Below, one piece after another: positions 30,001-36,000 of a DNA stretch of 64,000 nucleotides. The stretch is taken from contig JBBRCZ010000005.1 in NCBI GenBank assembly GCA_038204425.1, forward strand, positions 32,001 through 96,000, in the 5' to 3' direction. A program made the position numbers. Each line of letters opens with the position of its first letter. The stretch's first letter is position 1. Source of the DNA: Spirochaetia bacterium (GTDB lineage: Bacteria > Spirochaetota > Spirochaetia > DSM-27196 > Salinispiraceae).

Positions 30001-33000
30001 CTCTTGGAGTTTGTTCCAATAGTAGGCCCCATCTTAGGCGCAGTACCCGCTCTGCTGGTGGCACTTTCAATTTCTCCCACGGCGACAATATCTGTTTTGG
30101 TCTATTCGCTTGTCATCCAAGTGCTAGACAATGCGTTTTTAATACCTCGACTGATGGGAAAATCAGTAGGCGTTAGTCCGATAACCGTCATTGTCGCGGT
30201 GTTTGCTTTTTCTACCCTAATGGGGTTAACTGGAGCATTCTTAGCGATACCTTTGGCGGCCATTATCCAAGTTTTAGTCGATCACATGGTTACCAGTGCT
30301 GGCAAGAAAGGCAACGTAAATGCCGTGCTTTCGCCCGACAGTGCAACGGTCAGAGCTCGTATTCAACTTTTGCGGTCAGAGGCTCAATCAAGGTTGCGCG
30401 GTGGATCAAAACGAATAGCCCTAGTCCATGGCGATGCCGACGATCTGGATTTCCAAGCAGATCAGCTGCTAAGCAAGGCGGAGCAAGAGCTGTCAGGCGC
30501 AGATGCGACAGCCCTAACCGATACTGAAGAAGTACACAGCGAACGCTTGGCCGCCGTAGAAATTTTGATCGCGCAGGCAGCAGAAATGGTGGCAGTGGCG
30601 GTAAAGGAAAACAAATCCTAGCCGCTGCAACTGCAACTGCAAAATAGACCCGGCACCAAGGCTGGTTTACAAGAGCCCGCGTTTAAAGACAATAAAGACT
30701 GTCATAGTGATGGGCAGCAGTATTAACATAAAGAGCTCGCGGTTGAGGTTGGCAAATAGCAAACGTCTGTCAAAGTTATGTAAGAAGCTGAGTTTGGGCC
30801 AAAGGTAGCGGCCCACCAAAATTGCAGCTGCTATGACCAGCAAATCTATTGCAAGGTCCAGCAGGGATAGGCCAGGATTTGCAAGCAGTGAGTGACCAAA
30901 AAGCATCAGATAGAGCGCGCCAAAGACAAGCACCGCCAAGACTGGCCAGAATCGCTTGCCCAAAGCTTTACGCAGTCCGAGTCTATGTTTGGCAAATGCT
31001 GCCACAACAAAGAACGACATACCGAACAATAAGACCTTGTAGACGGACTGACCAGACAAAAAGGCCTGTTTTAAAAAATAAACTGGGCTTGCAAAAAGCC
31101 CAGCCATTGAAAAAATAGCCAAACCTATAATTGGAAGACTGAGTCTGCGCACAAGATAGCGTCCTCCGCGCTGAGAAAGGTCTTCATAACTATAGAACAT
31201 AATACTCTTGTGAAGTGCGTGTATTGGCATATACAAAAATGCAAGATCGTAGTTTTTAAACGAACACATTAAGCCAACCAAACCTACCGTCACCAAGGTG
31301 TTGTGTGCAATAGTTCGTTTTAGGTCGGTTTCAAAAAACATACACAGCGCACCGACAATCATAGTTGCCAACGAGAGATACCTTAGCAGTTCAAAAAATT
31401 CCATCATACCAGCTCGCTCGGCCGGTACTAAGACAAATATATAGAAACCTCTTATGCCGGAAAAAACAGTGAATGAAGCTAGGAAAGACGAAACCAAAGA
31501 ATTGGTCGCCCCATGACAGCTGGCCACCCACCCGGACGCTGGAAAGAGTGCTGCTTTGATCGCAAATGCAATGGCGCACAAAAGCAATCCGAGATCTAAC
31601 CATGGTCGCGCAATTATCTCATGACTTGGATCATAACCAAAACCCATTCCAGCGCCGCCCGCATAGAGCACAATTATGCCAGCCAAGAAGAACAACGAAC
31701 TTATCCCGCCAGTTAGCATGTATTTGATAGAAGCGCCGTAGTTTCCTTTTAGGCCAATTAAGACGTAGGCAGCCATAATCATCAGCTCGTAAAAGACAAA
31801 AAAATTAAAGATGTCTCCAGTAACCAAAAGTCCGATACTACCAGCCAAGAAGAAAAGAAATACCAGCCTAACATTGATTGAGTCCAAACTCTTTAATCGG
31901 AACAAGGCGAAAGCCATAGGAATAAAGAGATTGGCCATAAAAAAAATCTTTTCTTGGCTAAAGTGAAACTGGATGGAAAACGGAAGAGCACTGAGTGCAA
32001 CCAGATAGTTGCCTTCAATTGGCCGAGTAAGAAAGTAAATTACGACAAACGAAACTATTTCTAATATCAAAACCAAGGCCACAACAAATGCCGAGCAGTC
32101 TCGCCGCAAAAGAAAACTGACGCTCAAAATCACCAAGACTCCCAATAAGGGAAAAAAGGCAACTAGCATCCACAAGGCGTCAAACATTGCCAAGCTCCGA
32201 GACCAAGACAGTCCCTGTCTGACGATAGAGCCTGACTATGACCGCGCATGCCAAGGCATTAAAACACATTCCGATAACAATTGCCGTCAACATGAGGGCT
32301 TGCGGTACAGGATCTACAACAACACGCTGGCTAACATTGAGTATGGGAGCTGCGCCACTGGCAACAAATCCAATCTTTAAAAACTCAAGGATTAACATGC
32401 TTTCTACTATCGAAAGGCACATTACTTTTTTGATCAAATTGTCCACCACAATCAAGCCCCAAACAGCCACAAACAAAAGCCACAGATCAAGATTCATGTG
32501 CACTTCCCAAGATGCTTCATACCCACTACGGTTAAGACTACAACCATTGCTTCCATCATGGTGTCAAAAACCCTTGGTCCTAGATAAACAAGCGTTACCA
32601 CATTGTTTATTCCCACATGCTGAGCAAGATCGAGCCAAGCTTGCTTATCAGCTCGAACACTAACCTGGCCTGGACTCAAGAAGTAGACAATGAGCATTAT
32701 TGCAAGCAAAAGTAAGCCCAAAACGATGCCGGTAACGCAGCGCTCAATACGACGCCAAGATAAGTTATTTTTTGCCAGAACTATTGGATTAAGTTTCGGG
32801 GCTTGATCCCAAAACAAGAAATTTCTAAAAATTAGCACCATCGACCCCGAGACTTCAAGAAAAATCGCCAGAGAAAGAATAGGAAAAACCGCGTTTGACC
32901 AAATTAGACCTTCAAGTCTCAACTGATAAAGGCCGCCAAACGGTCTTCCTGCAAAAACAAAACCTGCTATTGCTAGAGCAAACAAGACAACAATTCCGCT

Positions 33001-36000
33001 CAGTTCTATCTTTTGAAAAACCATGTCCGAGTACATACGGCGCTCCATAACCAACTCCACCACTACCATAATCGATCCAAGCATAACGCCAGCCTGAAAA
33101 CCACCACCGGGAAACGACGCACCATAGGACGCCACATACAGAGAAAAAACTACCGCAAAGGGAAATATCTTGCCCAAAGTAGTCGTAAAAATTGGCGATT
33201 CTCTCAAGTTCACAAACTGTCTCCGTTGCTTCCATCGTAGATTTGACAAGGAAGCGTCATTAGACAAGCTTTTTCTGGGTTGGAAAAATCGATGCCTTCT
33301 TTCTGACAAATATGGAGAAATACTTTGATGTCGCGCGCATCGCCGACCGGAATAAACAACGTTCGATTGTAGCTGTACTCTTTCCCAAACAGCGACTTAA
33401 ATGATGCAAACAGGGGCAGTCCTTCGTCGCTAAGGCTTTCTATGCTCTCGCCGTCTAGTACCGAACTATCAAAAAGACCAACTTCCAGGAGGATGGACGA
33501 AATTCTATCAAGCAAACTTTCATCCTTTAAAATAATAATCATTAGCTTCATGGTTTAGGCACTCTCAAAGGCGCTAATATAGTCGATTATGATTTTTGCG
33601 CATTCGTTGCTTTCACCAGCTACAAGCCTATCACGAGCCTCTTGAAAAACTTCTACGGCATCTTCTTGGTTGAGCAAGCGCCCAAGCCGCGCCAAAAGAC
33701 TCAAGTACATTCTACTTTTTGCGTTCGGGAGGATGATACAAAACAGCGCTTGCACCAAATCACCTTTTATCAAATGGATTGCTTTTGGTAAAAGACCCAA
33801 ACTCATTGTGATGTCTGACGCCTCGTCACTGCGAGCATGCACCAGCGCAAAACCCTTGCCAAGATTGATGTCCTGGGGTGCATTGGTGCGGCTTGACGCT
33901 TTGATACTTTGCAAAACATTGAGTTCCAGCTTGGCATTTCCGGCGCACAAACTAACTGCCTGCTTTAGTATTGATTCGTAGCCACTAGCATCCAATAGAA
34001 TAACTCGATCTGGCTTTAAGTAGTCCAAGAGATCAACCATGGTCCCTCCCCTTATCTTTTTGTGTATCGCCGCTTTTTTTGTCTTGGTCCTTTTCGGCAG
34101 CAGCATGACCATGGGTAAACTTAATTGCCGTCAAAAACACTAGGCTCGACAAGCCAGCACCAAGTGCTGCTTCAGTTATCGCTATGTCTGGAGCTGAGAG
34201 CAAAAGATAACGCACGGTCATTATCATACCAAAGGCACTCAGCCACATTAATGACCGCAACAATTGCTTGCAAGCCAGAACACCACAAATACAAGCGCCC
34301 GTGAATATCGTCATCAGGACATCAAACACTATCATCGTTATCATCTCGCACTCTTTCGTCCATGCGTGAGACTGCCAGGACGTGGGCAACAATCGGAGCG
34401 GTAAAAACCAAAAAAATTACGATCACGACAAACTTCAAAGAAAAGTCAGTCTGCCGTGCGCCAAGGGCCAAACCAATAATGATCGAAATAGAACCCGAAA
34501 CACCGCATTTGGTCGCGGCATGAAACCTTTGAAACAAGTCTGGCAAAATTATGCTGCCGAGACTTCCAAAAAACACAAGAACAAGGCCGCTAATCAGAAA
34601 GAAGCCTTCTAATATTTGCAGTAAAATAGTCATTCTTTTACTCGATCTTGCATGAGTTTGCGAATACGTACAAACGCGACAATTTCGCCAAAGGCCAACA
34701 AAGCATAGACCATTGCAATATCGAGGTAATAACTGGCATTTTCGATCACCGCAAGCGTGCATAAGATTAAGACAATACCAGACGACACCAACGACAAAGC
34801 CATTAAACGATCCTGAAAACTCGGCCCCCTCAGCAAGCGAAAACTAGACATCAAAGTTATTAACCCAAGCACAACCAAAAAAAAATGCATCATTCTGCTA
34901 TCCCAAGACCCGCAGAATCACCGACTCAATCGTGTCTTTGATTTGCCGCCCAGCCTCAACACTGTGGCGAGACTTGAGATCAAAACAATGTACATAAAGA
35001 TAACGACCACTTAACCAAAGCGTTATGGTTCCAGGCACCAAGGTGATACTGTTAGCAAGCATTATTCGCCCCATCGGTGACCTAATTCGCGTCTTGATAC
35101 GCACTACTCCTGATTTGTACTTGCCACCTAACATTCGCCAAATCAAAGAAAAACTTGCTTGGTAGTTTTGGACAATCAAGAGAATAAAATAGATAACAAT
35201 CAAGTCAATCCGGTACAATAGACGACCATGCTTAAGCGTGTTACCTTCCCAAAAAATTCGCCAAGAGAATATGCTTACCAATGCACTGAGCACCACACCC
35301 CAAAGTAGGGAAGTCAAGATCAACTCTTGTGAAAACAAGAGCCATGCCAAAAACAATGCGAACCACAAGCTCAAAAAACGCGCCATAGTACCTCGTATTC
35401 TCGATTTTCCGCTGCCTGCAGGCTTATGTCAAGCACAGACCGGTCTTCACCATATATCGGTGTATCACGAAGCATTGATATAACCTTGCGCCGGCAGTAT
35501 ACTGCTGCTAGGAGACCCAAATATGCCACAAACTAAGCCACAAAAAATTATGGGCAAAACTATTGATTATGCAGTTCGAGACCTCGCACTTGCCGAACTT
35601 GGTCGCAAGGAAATAGAAATCGCCGAGCACGAAATGCCAGGGCTTATTGCCACCAAAGAAAAGTATGGACCCAAAAAGTCCCTGGCTGGCGTAAGAGTTT
35701 CTGGCAGCCTCCACATGACCATCCAGACTGCGGTTTTAGCAGAGACACTTGCCGCCCTAGGCGCCAATGTGAGGTGGGCCAGTTGCAATATTTTTAGCAC
35801 CCAAGATCAAGCCGCTAGTGCCATTGCTGTAGGACGACCAGAATCGGGCGGCAGTATCGCCCAACCAAAAGGCATTCCAGTCTTTGCTTGGAAGGGCGAA
35901 AGCTTAGAAGAATATTGGGACTGTACACTCGACGCCCTAACCTTTCCTTCCAAAGATGGCAGTTTTGCACCCGGCAAGACGCTCGGACCAGAGCTGGTAG

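Follow-up and report, generated by a model that had tools for sequence, protein, structure and literature searches.

A PTS EIIA-type domain and a predicted PII-like protein are encoded together within an Mrp-type antiporter operon of a spirochaete

We analysed a window of 64,000 nt from Spirochaetia bacterium (GCA_038204425.1; contig JBBRCZ010000005.1, 32,001-96,000), and all coordinates given here are positions in this window. Nine ORFs lie on the minus strand at 30667-35386, in the order MnhE-MrpF-MnhG-MbhD-EIIA-X-MnhB-MnhC-MrpD, and eight of the nine score above their Pfam gathering cut-offs (Table 1). With the most plausible start codons, successive neighbours are spaced by +4, -4, -23, -8, +3, -4, -10 and -14 nt. 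Since every junction is either a gap of ≤4 nt or an overlap, we conclude that the nine genes form one operon. Thus, the statement of an earlier note on this DNA that an EIIA gene lies inside an Mrp/Mbh-type operon holds (PTS_EIIA_2, 47.8 bits). The MnhG ORF is open from 34762, with the PhaG_MnhG_YufB match starting at residue 55 of this long ORF; the ATG at 34633 and the MrpF stop overlap by 4 nt. The MnhB-type subunit has a DUF4040/MbhE-like C-terminal part (NCBIfam NF009159, residues 186-263 of the long ORF), and hydropathy indicates a charged C-terminal tail of ~30 aa on the MbhD subunit. A weak promoter-like site precedes MnhE; there are 10 such sites in the region, which is not above the number in shuffled sequences (mean 7.0, sd 3.1). 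No RNA run contains this stretch of DNA.

Table 1. Genes and sites of the operon, and other EIIA(-like) domain proteins of the genome.
Feature	Position	Strand	Evidence
Promoter-like site TTGACA-17-GAAAAT upstream of MnhE	35404..35432	-	Weak: 10/12 positions match
MnhE/MrpE-type subunit, 162 aa, first operon gene	34898..35386	-	Pfam MNHE 103.3 bits
MrpF-type subunit, 87 aa	34630..34893	-	Pfam MrpF_PhaF 48.0 bits
MnhG/MrpG-type subunit, 103 aa from ATG at 34633	34322..34633	-	Pfam PhaG_MnhG_YufB 68.5 bits
MbhD/DUF4040-type small membrane subunit, ~103 aa	34033..34344	-	Pfam MbhD 61.1 bits
EIIA_2-type domain protein, 161 aa	33555..34040	-	Pfam PTS_EIIA_2 47.8 bits (cut-off 27)
X, predicted PII-like protein, 113 aa	33210..33551	-	AF2 model and Foldseek; Pfam/NCBIfam unmatched
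MnhB-type subunit, 239 aa from GTG at 33213	32494..33213	-	Pfam MnhB 47.2 bits
MnhC/NuoK-type subunit, 107 aa	32180..32503	-	Pfam Oxidored_q2 57.0 bits; NCBIfam subunit C models
MrpD/MbhH-type antiporter-like subunit, 508 aa	30667..32193	-	Pfam Proton_antipo_M 73.8 bits
CPA2-like Na_H_Exchanger + Usp + weak EIIA_2-like end, 829 aa	15819..18308	+	Pfam 170.7 / 24.9 / 24.0 bits
Na_H_Exchanger+EIIA, 694 aa	contig C12
Sulfate_transp+STAS+EIIA, 700 aa	contig C2
EIIA+CBS, 312 aa	contig C6

We found no second Mrp-type system in the genome: the MrpD/MbhH-type subunit is the only Proton_antipo_M protein (PF00361 occurs at one place), and phmmer searches with every operon subunit found no paralogue in the genome. 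An MrpA-type large subunit is absent and the number of antiporter-like subunits is one, as judged from PF00361 across the whole genome.

The EIIA gene is preceded by a ribosome-binding site (GGGGAGG), and the acceptor histidine of its product is His68, in the motif NLGKGFALVHAR. Alignment A2 shows no exception to this residue; all 12 window-type relatives and all 16 EIIA::X fusions have it, as do 79 of the 81 metagenome EIIA pieces, and the remaining two are truncated pieces with a gap there. The domain is nonetheless divergent: it reads LVH, without the usual proline preceding the histidine, and a second position, His in 75 of 81 type-2 EIIAs, is Tyr in 12 of 12 window-type EIIAs. It scores only ~20 bits against each of the PtsN and fructose-IIA equivalogs, and its assignment as a PtsN equivalog is ruled out by TIGR01419 (19.5 bits against a cut-off of 138.7). 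Hence, from the divergence of the sequence and the low equivalog scores, a phosphorylation-independent role is possible.

The genome encodes an EI of 592 aa that lacks a GAF domain, an HPr carrying both the His15 and the Ser46 motif, and HprK; the rpoN cluster contains HprK and HPr without ptsN. In this 95.6%-complete genome we detected no match to PF02378, PF02302, PF00367, PF03610 or PF00358, a set of five families outside which lie sorbose/mannose IIB/IIC/IID, glucitol, galactitol and EIIC_2. Across the order, the EI N-domain is present in all 57 genomes of at least 90% completeness, and PTS_EIIC exceeds its cut-off in only 12 of 99 genomes. There are four EIIA_2 domains in the genome, one being the operon gene, and a fifth, EIIA-like domain at the end of the 829-aa protein that falls under the cut-off (24.0 bits against 27) and whose histidine aligns with the acceptor histidine. 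Four of these five domains are tied to ion-transport proteins. The earlier note had located the four EIIA_2 domains, had found the phospho-accepting histidine in each, and had described a genome with EI, HPr and HprK but no EIIB or EIIC; Pfam bears out all four placements and the three general components, the five EII families searched gave no match, and the histidine extends to the fifth, weak domain. The same note had classed the Na+/H+ exchanger that carries EIIA as CPA1, which we reject: CPA2 model TIGR00932 is the best match for this exchanger (130.5 bits) and for the other EIIA-carrying one (102.3 bits), both scores being below its cut-off of 238.3. Its reading of a regulatory phosphorelay that acts on ion transport is partly supported: the relay proteins are present and most of the EIIA(-like) domains are tied to ion-transport proteins, but the operon EIIA is not a PtsN equivalog.

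These observations bear on whether EIIA and X might be accessory or ligand-sensing subunits that work independently of PTS phosphorylation, the EIIA fold being a binding or scaffold domain and its histidine structural. Such a role would suit the modest Pfam score, the missing proline, the Tyr at the second position and the large shortfall from both equivalog cut-offs, and some partner EIIAs weakly match Band_3_cyto, a non-PTS domain, at sub-threshold scores. However, the acceptor histidine is kept in all five domains of the genome and in every complete relative examined, across EIIA subfamilies that are otherwise only ~20-40% identical. EI and HPr are also retained in a genome without a match to any of the five EII families tested, so the EIIA domains are the only candidate acceptors seen, and EI is universal among the good genomes of the order. 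We therefore regard a phosphorylation-free role as unlikely.

The gene downstream of EIIA encodes X, for which neither Pfam nor NCBIfam gives a match or a family name. AF2 models of X (pLDDT 79.5 and 85.9) predict a b-a-b-(long loop 35-60)-b-a-b fold. Foldseek returned 96 PDB matches at E<=0.001 (best 5.8e-05); those listed are all PII/GlnK/SbtB or PII-like, with SbtB, GlnB and GlnK the best. The window's own X does not match Pfam P-II, but 11 of 39 X family members do at E<=0.01, and several relatives pass the cut-off. By hhalign, a 142-sequence X family aligns with the genome's own PII at a probability of 62% (E 7.5e-05); for a smaller profile of 39 sequences the probability is 2.7%, and a search of PDB sequences with this smaller profile gave nothing significant (PII E 1.1). 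A wide structural search reached Z<=7.6 at most, with other ferredoxin-like folds intermixed. Across the X family, only E23, G25, P46, F48 and G107 are near-invariant. Taken together, the models and matches indicate that X has a PII-like fold.

An EIIA_2 domain accompanies X at nearly every locus. The two are adjacent or fused in all 26 loci of a phylum sample, and they are paired in 30 of 30 loci of the order, in 79 of 80 metagenome loci, the exception being at a contig end, and in 5 of 7 loci of a genome contig collection; one relative (L018) has X within the operon without EIIA. X itself is present in 91 of 99 genomes of the order, including 49 of 50 high-quality ones. Chance does not account for the arrangement, which we see at well over 100 independent loci. 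We conclude from this sequence comparison that EIIA and the PII-like X are a conserved unit. The usual form in the order is X-EIIA heading the same Mrp operon, and the window form, EIIA-X inside the operon, is a minority layout. Thus, the earlier note was right that EIIA adjoins MbhD here, but most genomes of the order have X-EIIA at the operon head, and the constant partner of EIIA is the PII-like X, which that note overlooked. Its proposal of covalent, in-cis control by EIIA finds a parallel in MbhD::EIIA fusions in four relatives (P0009-P0012), but the EIIA of the window is a separate polypeptide. EIIA::X fusion proteins also exist: they adjoin CPA-type exchangers, and 16 of 16 tested representatives of 271-278 aa have this architecture.

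The pair is not confined to antiporter loci. Antiporter genes are neighbours at 19 of the 26 phylum loci (Mrp at 8, Na_H_Exchanger at 11), and at the other 7 the EIIA+X pair stands alone within the sequence covered, several times beside rpsF-ssb. Among the 72 metagenome loci with >=300 nt after EIIA, MnhE follows EIIA in 64 as scored by script, and loci L123 and L125 show MnhE too; in 6 of the 72, neither an Mrp gene nor another antiporter gene lies downstream of the pair within the sequence covered. The pair may thus work in trans or have other targets. A 2026 review lists several unrelated targets of E. coli PtsN (PMC13104625), and EIIA+X could likewise be a general trans-acting signalling pair directed at, for example, K+ uptake or metabolism, with the antiporter operon providing co-expression only. 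We consider this rather improbable, since MbhD::EIIA fusions physically tie EIIA to the membrane complex, the pair is translationally packed mid-operon in the window, the antiporters beside which it occurs in the phylum sample belong to two unrelated classes, and in this same genome EIIA is fused directly to CPA2-like and SulP transporters.

As to what the operon encodes, the complex might instead be the membrane arm of an Mbh/Mbx-like redox or hydrogenase complex, or a transporter of another ion, controlled by EIIA and X. The subunit set equals that of the Mbh membrane module (MbhD, a single antiporter-like subunit, no MrpA-type subunit), and the operon proteins all score under the cut-offs of the NCBIfam Mrp equivalogs. 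Against this, we found no hydrogenase or redox module in or beside the operon, whose flanking genes, an AI-2E transporter and one other, are on the opposite strand, and 32 of the 39 metagenome loci with enough sequence contain the same seven Mrp families, in order and with nothing more (Pfam-confirmed for L049); we consider this reading, another ion included, very unlikely. Least probable is that EIIA-X is left over from an EIIA-EIIB pair, with X as a degenerate EIIB-like protein that would accept phosphate from EIIA or relay it to the transporter: an ESM Atlas model of fusion P0047 (residues 2-278) does align with EIIA-EIIB(-EIIC) fructose-type proteins in which PTS_IIB follows EIIA (TM 0.58-0.63 by query), but no EIIB is among the PDB matches listed for X, members of its family pass Pfam P-II and none matches PTS_IIB, the family has no conserved Cys or His, and PF02302 is unmatched in the genome.

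The explanation that we favour, with reasonable but limited confidence, is that a two-sensor cytoplasmic module, reading PTS phosphorylation state and a PII-like ligand signal, gates cation/proton antiport. On this reading, the operon encodes a self-contained Mrp-type (CPA3) cation/proton antiporter that resembles the Mbh type and comprises a single antiporter-like subunit (MrpD/MbhH type) along with MnhE, F, G, MbhD, MnhB and MnhC, and the EIIA_2 domain and X are its soluble cytoplasmic accessory proteins. Phosphate would pass from PEP through EI and HPr-His15 to EIIA His68, and HprK could block this transfer by phosphorylating HPr-Ser46; the phosphorylation state of EIIA would therefore report carbon and energy flux. 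X would bind a small effector, perhaps an adenine nucleotide or second messenger, as other PII-family proteins do, and its long conserved loop (P46, F48) would be presented to a partner. The pair may bind the antiporter from the cytoplasmic side, close to the MbhD tail, and switch Na+(K+)/H+ exchange on or off, which would match both the inhibition of YcgO by unphosphorylated PtsN and the plugging of SbtA and AmtB by SbtB and GlnK. In relatives, the same module would serve CPA2-like exchangers. The recurrence of the pair beside, or fused near, cation/proton antiporters suggests direct metabolic control of ion pumping. In the literature we found no description of an EIIA and PII-like pair in an Mrp system, of soluble signalling subunits for any Mrp system, or of a PII protein coupled to an EIIA domain.

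The closest known systems each share part of this arrangement. In E. coli, unphosphorylated PtsN is reported to bind and inhibit the K+/H+ antiporter YcgO (PMC11808508), a precedent for the explanation favoured here; the statement of the 2026 PTSNtr review that PtsN has no known phospho-acceptor targets (PMC13104625) counts against it. The operon EIIA resembles PTS(Ntr), where PtsN acts on YcgO/CvrA, TrkA and KdpD, in being an EIIA_2-class protein without a sugar-transport role, and PtsN likewise controls monovalent-cation transport by protein contact that depends on its phosphorylation state. It differs in being encoded inside an antiporter operon (in relatives, at its head or fused to a membrane subunit or transporter), in lying outside the rpoN cluster and below the PtsN equivalog cut-off, in working with an EI that has no GAF domain, and in having a multisubunit Mrp complex as putative target and a PII-like partner.

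PII-family regulators insert a loop into a partner transporter. X is like the regulators of the SbtB-SbtA, GlnK-AmtB and PII-NrtBCD pairs in being a small b-a-b-b-a-b protein with a long loop, encoded beside a membrane transporter, and its best structural matches among those listed are chains of SbtB, GlnK and PII. Unlike them, X itself falls under the Pfam P-II cut-off, has a loop motif of its own (P46, F48), and goes together with an EIIA domain, to which it is even fused in some relatives. In streptococci and lactobacilli, the non-PTS transporter LacS similarly carries a PTS EIIA domain, whose phosphorylation by HPr tunes transport (PMC10710835). However, the LacS domain is of the EIIA-Glc class (PF00358 type) rather than EIIA_2, its cargo is a sugar rather than an ion, and LacS has no PII-like partner. 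Finally, the operon matches Mrp (CPA3) antiporters and the Mbh membrane module in subunits E, F, G, B, C and D plus MbhD, in an Mbh-like order, and we take its subunits to be the counterparts of those of Mbh hydrogenase. It differs from Mrp antiporters in having one antiporter-like subunit and no MrpA-type large subunit, from Mbh hydrogenase in having no hydrogenase module, and from both in carrying two soluble, predicted signalling subunits.

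The nine genes MnhE-MrpF-MnhG-MbhD-EIIA-X-MnhB-MnhC-MrpD form one translationally packed operon. With the most plausible starts, successive genes are spaced by +4, -4, -23, -8, +3, -4, -10 and -14 nt, a ribosome-binding site (GGGGAGG) lies upstream of the EIIA gene, and the neighbours on both sides, one of them an AI-2E transporter gene, are on the opposite strand. Eight of the nine ORFs matched Pfam above the gathering cut-off; the ninth, here called X, lies next to EIIA. An earlier note had pointed to a PTS EIIA gene in the middle of an Mrp operon, and this observation is borne out; X had escaped it. 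We detected no Rfam family in window positions 30000-36000, and a promoter and terminator scan of the operon region gave counts not above those of shuffled sequences, so that the one promoter-like site before MnhE is weak evidence. A look-up of RNA runs listed none that covers the operon.

Positions of the operon genes and of other genes of the genome (window coordinates, unless contig C4 or C12 is named)
Feature	Position	Strand	Length	Match
MnhE	operon 35386-30667	minus		Pfam MNHE, 103.3 bits
MrpF	operon 35386-30667	minus		Pfam MrpF_PhaF, 48.0 bits
MnhG	operon 35386-30667	minus		Pfam PhaG_MnhG_YufB, 68.5 bits
MbhD	operon 35386-30667	minus		Pfam MbhD, 61.1 bits
EIIA	operon 35386-30667; gene 33555-34040	minus	161 aa	Pfam PTS_EIIA_2, 47.8 bits (cut-off 27)
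X	33210-33551	minus	113 aa	no Pfam or NCBIfam match
MnhB	32494-33213	minus		Pfam MnhB, 47.2 bits
MnhC type	operon 35386-30667	minus		Pfam Oxidored_q2, 57.0 bits
MrpD type	operon 35386-30667	minus		Pfam Proton_antipo_M, 73.8 bits
Na_H_Exchanger+EIIA			694 aa	PF00359
Sulfate_transp+STAS+EIIA			700 aa	PF00359
EIIA+CBS			312 aa	PF00359
Na_H_Exchanger+Usp with weak C-terminal EIIA_2-like domain	15819-18308	plus	829 aa	24.0 bits, under the cut-off of 27
Response regulator	18395-18895	plus
Amt-like protein	19342-22080	plus	912 aa	Ammonium_transp (385 bits), Hpt, HATPase_c
Canonical P-II gene	C4:34536-34853			89 bits
Canonical P-II gene	C12:23745-24062			88 bits
rpoN cluster (L012)	C4:180000-190000

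The operon EIIA is of the mannitol/fructose/Ntr class (PTS EIIA_2, PF00359), with residues 32-161 of its long ORF aligned to profile positions 3-133 of 144. It is not a PtsN equivalog (TIGR01419, 19.5 bits against a cut-off of 138.7), and the NCBIfam fructose-IIA model likewise gave only ~20 bits. PtsN proper goes with an rpoN-hpf-ptsN cluster and an EI-Ntr paralogue with a GAF domain, and this genome differs in both respects: its rpoN cluster reads LptA-LptB-RpoN-HPF-HprK-HPr, after which come genes for a histidine kinase and for a regulator of the NtrC type, with neither ptsN nor any other EIIA gene in the LptA-to-HPr stretch, and its EI (592 aa) consists of the N, mobile and C domains only, without GAF.

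Identity between the operon EIIA and its relatives is 37-48%. His68 aligns with the His of the '..PH' motif of other EIIA domains, the one that this class has in a G-x-A-x-P-H loop. This acceptor His is invariant in A2, the alignment of window-type sequences (those with EIIA-X inside the operon), and it was found in 12/12 window-type sequences and 16/16 fusions; of 81 EIIA pieces from metagenomes, 79 have it, and the other two are partial pieces with a gap there. We counted two features of window-type EIIAs against phosphorylation: the Pro before the acceptor His is missing (LVH), and a Tyr stands where type-2 EIIAs (from X-EIIA pairs at the head of an Mrp operon) have a second His. These features would suit an accessory role of EIIA and X that is independent of phosphorylation; set beside the retained His, we consider such a role unlikely, and favour an EIIA that would be phosphorylated through the PTS relay. 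Four relatives of the window-type EIIA (representative proteins P0009-P0012, 257-259 aa) are fused to MbhD in one polypeptide (MbhD::EIIA) through a linker of ~25 residues, and a charged tail about as long is present on the window's own MbhD. A search for longer relatives of EIIA gave none at E<=0.001, and we saw no triple MbhD-EIIA-X fusion, which is weak evidence.

PF00359 was found at five places in the genome, the operon gene included. Four of these are the proteins on which the earlier note had placed EIIA domains, and the acceptor His, which that note described as kept in all four, aligns in all five. The additional, weak domain is also on an ion transporter, the 829-aa exchanger, which has a His-rich stretch (LLHHH) at the acceptor position. 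The assignment of the EIIA-bearing exchanger to CPA1 did not stand, since for both such exchangers the best match is the CPA2 model TIGR00932, below its cut-off; the SulP+EIIA protein is closest to DauA. On the same strand as the 829-aa exchanger gene lie a response-regulator gene and then the gene for a 912-aa protein that looks like an Amt-fused sensor kinase.

Besides EI, the genome encodes HPr (88 aa, with a GIHARP motif containing His15 and a KSIMG motif containing Ser46) and a two-domain HprK. In agreement with the earlier note, we found no EIIB or EIIC: PTS_EIIC (PF02378), PTS_IIB (PF02302), PTS_EIIB (PF00367), EIIA-man (PF03610) and PTS_EIIA_1 (PF00358) had no match in this 95.6%-complete genome, a search of five families that left out mannose/sorbose IIB-IID, glucitol, galactitol and EIIC_2. 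Within the families searched, the PTS is regulatory only. Across the order, the EI N-domain is present in 57/57 genomes of at least 90% completeness and PTS_EIIC exceeds its cut-off in only 12/99 genomes; therefore, the relay of most of these organisms has no PF02378-type sugar permease to serve.

The association of EIIA with X extends well beyond this operon. A contig search returned seven loci, six labelled Spirochaetia, Spirochaetaceae or Spirochaeta and one (L019) Candidatus Sumerlaeota. Four have the window order E-F-G-MbhD-EIIA-X-MnhB-...-C-D, one has E-F-G-EIIA-X and one is too short; in the seventh (L018:567-1662, from a Spirochaetaceae MAG) the order is MbhD-X-MnhB and EIIA is missing from it, and thus X can remain in the operon without EIIA. 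In a sample of the phylum, X was detected in 26 of 401 genomes, representing 23 of 153 genera, and it adjoins or is fused to EIIA_2 in 26/26 loci. Ten of these encode an EIIA::X fusion of 272-279 aa beside Na_H_Exchanger genes, seven read X-EIIA-MnhE-MrpF..., seven have an EIIA-X pair with no antiporter gene within ~1.5 kb (several beside rpsF-ssb), and single loci have E-F-G-MbhD-EIIA-X and Na_H_Exchanger-EIIA-X as separate genes. The X profile retrieved 1075 clusters (50% identity) from the representative library at E<=0.001, 503 of them at E<=1e-10, and all 16 representatives of 271-278 aa that we tested have EIIA_2 followed by X. We also scanned metagenomes with a narrower type-2 alignment (A4), and the resulting 80 loci, annotated with local HMMs (L049 was checked with Pfam), are therefore a biased sample, drawn from close relatives in a single subfamily that share 69-94% identity with the query. 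In 79 of them X is followed by EIIA, the exception being a contig end. A script found MnhE after EIIA in 64 of the 72 loci with room for it, two more being hidden by ORF calling and six having no Mrp operon after the pair; all seven Mrp families follow in order in 32 of the 39 loci that extend 4.3 kb or more downstream.

Within the window's own order, X is present in 91/99 genomes, 49/50 high-quality genomes and 24/26 genera, often as two copies that differ in size, one matching the stand-alone protein and the other the fusion. Among the best 30 loci of the order, 28 have the arrangement X-EIIA-MnhE-MrpF-MnhG and another breaks off after X-EIIA; the remaining one is the window itself, which therefore has a minority layout. 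Here the pair has been relocated to the interior of the operon, between MbhD and MnhB, with its gene order reversed. We rejected chance neighbourhood of EIIA and X because the pairing is far too consistent. Gene order and fusions point to EIIA and X being one module that goes with cation/proton antiporters. The pair might instead act in trans, its genes merely being co-expressed with those of the antiporters; pairs lying apart from antiporter genes would suit this reading, those beside or among such genes speak against it, and we regard it as quite unlikely, preferring a module that would act on the antiporter itself.

Several relatives depart from these layouts. At the metagenome locus L116 (5352-10345), the usual Mrp operon is replaced: after X-EIIA come a gene for a DNA-binding EIIA, a 233-aa HTH_17+EIIA_2 protein, and next two Proton_antipo_M genes. 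In a genome of the same class (L028:1904-3292), X-EIIA-MnhE is immediately preceded by a gene for a SulP+STAS transporter. Two odd X proteins, P0125 (a PrmC-type methyltransferase with X, 422 aa) and P0050 (an integrase-core fragment with X, 234 aa), may be gene-call fusions.

Mrp subunits B, C, D, E, F and G, plus MbhD, are encoded together in the operon according to Pfam, and NCBIfam Mrp subunit models match its proteins, all under their equivalog cut-offs. The operon's MrpD is the single Proton_antipo_M place in the genome; a second antiporter-like subunit (MrpA beside MrpD) was not found at this level of completeness, and phmmer detected no paralogues of the Mrp subunits in the genome. We conclude from the sole Proton_antipo_M protein and the lack of subunit paralogues that the operon encodes the organism's only Mrp-type system. 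Its layout matches that of an Mbh-like module, which has a single antiporter-like subunit. That the membrane complex has a different activity is very unlikely, and we take it to be a probable cation/proton antiporter. The MnhB gene differs by operon type: in the window the MnhB domain comes first, followed by a DUF4040/MbhE-like part, and in type-2 operons (L049:7159-7860) the MbhE-like part precedes the MnhB domain. The loci L018, L020 and L022 have a short MnhB and then a separate ORF of 85-90 aa.

X is 54-70% identical to nine other 113-aa clusters, more than EIIA is to its relatives, and this identity, together with a confident model, rules out a spurious ORF. AF2 models built from 10 sequences (pLDDT 79.5) and from 142 family sequences (pLDDT 85.9) share a ferredoxin-like fold of two b-a-b units, in which a long loop joins strand 2 to strand 3 (E2-8, H13-24, E30-35, loop, E61-69, H72-84, E95-101), as in PII proteins. 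With the 142-sequence model, Foldseek returned 96 PDB matches at E<=0.001 (best 5.8e-05), and among the matches listed all were PII, GlnK, SbtB or PII-like; with the first model, only PII and PII-like chains ranked, at E 4e-03 and above. A wide VIA-align search (Z<=7.6), independent of Foldseek, was not discriminating, placing CPII, SbtB, TM0021 and DUF3240 among other ferredoxin-like folds. Support from sequence is weaker than that from structure. The window's X did not match Pfam P-II (PF00543); 11 of 39 X family members did at E<=0.01, and L036 (35.1 bits), P0045 (33.7), P0125 (33.5), P0095 (32.2), P0062 and P0123 passed the cut-off of 25 bits. With hhalign, the 142-sequence family aligned to one of the genome's two canonical PII proteins over 78 columns (probability 62%, E 7.5e-05); a smaller X profile (A3) gave a probability of 2.7% against the other (L129) and nothing significant against PDB sequences (PII at E 1.1). 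The loop carries near-invariant P46 and F48, a motif that is X's own. We take X to belong to the PII superfamily as a divergent member, as predicted structures and family-level comparisons suggest. That X is instead an EIIB-like acceptor, as suggested only by ESM Atlas structure rows for an EIIA::X fusion, is barely credible in view of the PII evidence and of the lack of any conserved Cys or His in the X family.

The mechanism that we propose builds on what was observed: the gene content and its packing, the folds, the retained His, the constant pairing of EIIA with X, and the fusions. Phosphate would pass from PEP through EI and HPr-His15 to EIIA-His68, with a veto by HprK through HPr-Ser46; X would sense a small effector, as PII proteins do; and the EIIA-X pair would bind the antiporter from its cytoplasmic side, close to MbhD, and gate Na+(K+)/H+ exchange. 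Taken as a whole, we consider this mechanism somewhat probable. A complex prediction for EIIA (A2) with X (A1) scored 0.01, below the mark, and speaks neither for nor against binding. The earlier note had proposed a purely regulatory phosphorelay that sets ion fluxes through EIIA domains; this is supported in part, and the PII-like partner X sharpens it. More broadly, EIIA with a PII-like partner is a possible, if not quite probable, widespread two-input switch, so far without a name, that docks directly on cation/proton antiporters, Mrp and CPA2-like, in Spirochaetota. The switch may also occur in Cloacimonadota, Bacillota and Acidobacteriota, where the ESM Atlas provides leads only: X-like clusters in the latter two phyla and fusion-sized EIIA clusters in the first.

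Our literature search, which subscription journals and older comparative PTS surveys might amend, found no description of an EIIA/PII-like pair in Mrp operons, no work joining PTS_EIIA_2 with Na_H_Exchanger or the PII superfamily with EIIA, no EIIA(Ntr)-SulP fusion and no protein regulator of Mrp antiporters. A 2026 review of PTSNtr (PMC13104625) places the system in Spirochaetales and nowhere uses 'fused', 'fusion' or 'PII' in its text; a Salinispira genome paper lists a seven-gene multicomponent antiporter, with no mention of regulators in the corresponding excerpt. Because Pfam architectures are public, whoever looks can probably find the EIIA fusions to CPA and SulP proteins. The PII-like partner, the EIIA::PII-like fusion and their occurrence in Mrp operons seem undescribed.

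Tolerance of Na+ and alkali depends centrally on Mrp antiporters, which are evolutionary relatives of the membrane arm of complex I. PTS and PII are two of the largest bacterial signalling families. If our reading is correct, EIIA with its PII-like partner would give an Mrp complex its first regulator at the protein level, built in and with a testable mechanism, and would link PTS and PII signalling within one module, in some cases within a single polypeptide. Two signals would then together control Na+ extrusion and pH homeostasis: glycolytic flux, read as PEP:pyruvate through EI and HPr and subject to the HprK veto, and the nucleotide or second messenger that the PII-like part detects. This would give the PTS of spirochaetes without a sugar permease a concrete output. 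The X family would be a new PII branch of ~1075 clusters, and the EIIA::X and MbhD::EIIA fusions would be natural constructs for structural work.

Precedents for the proposed mechanism exist on both sides of the module. Unphosphorylated PtsN binds and inhibits YcgO (PMC11808508), the EIIA domain of LacS is phosphorylated by HPr (PMC10710835), and titles of PDB structures record PII-family proteins on transporters. The EIIA-X pair would be a variation on these known kinds of transporter regulation.
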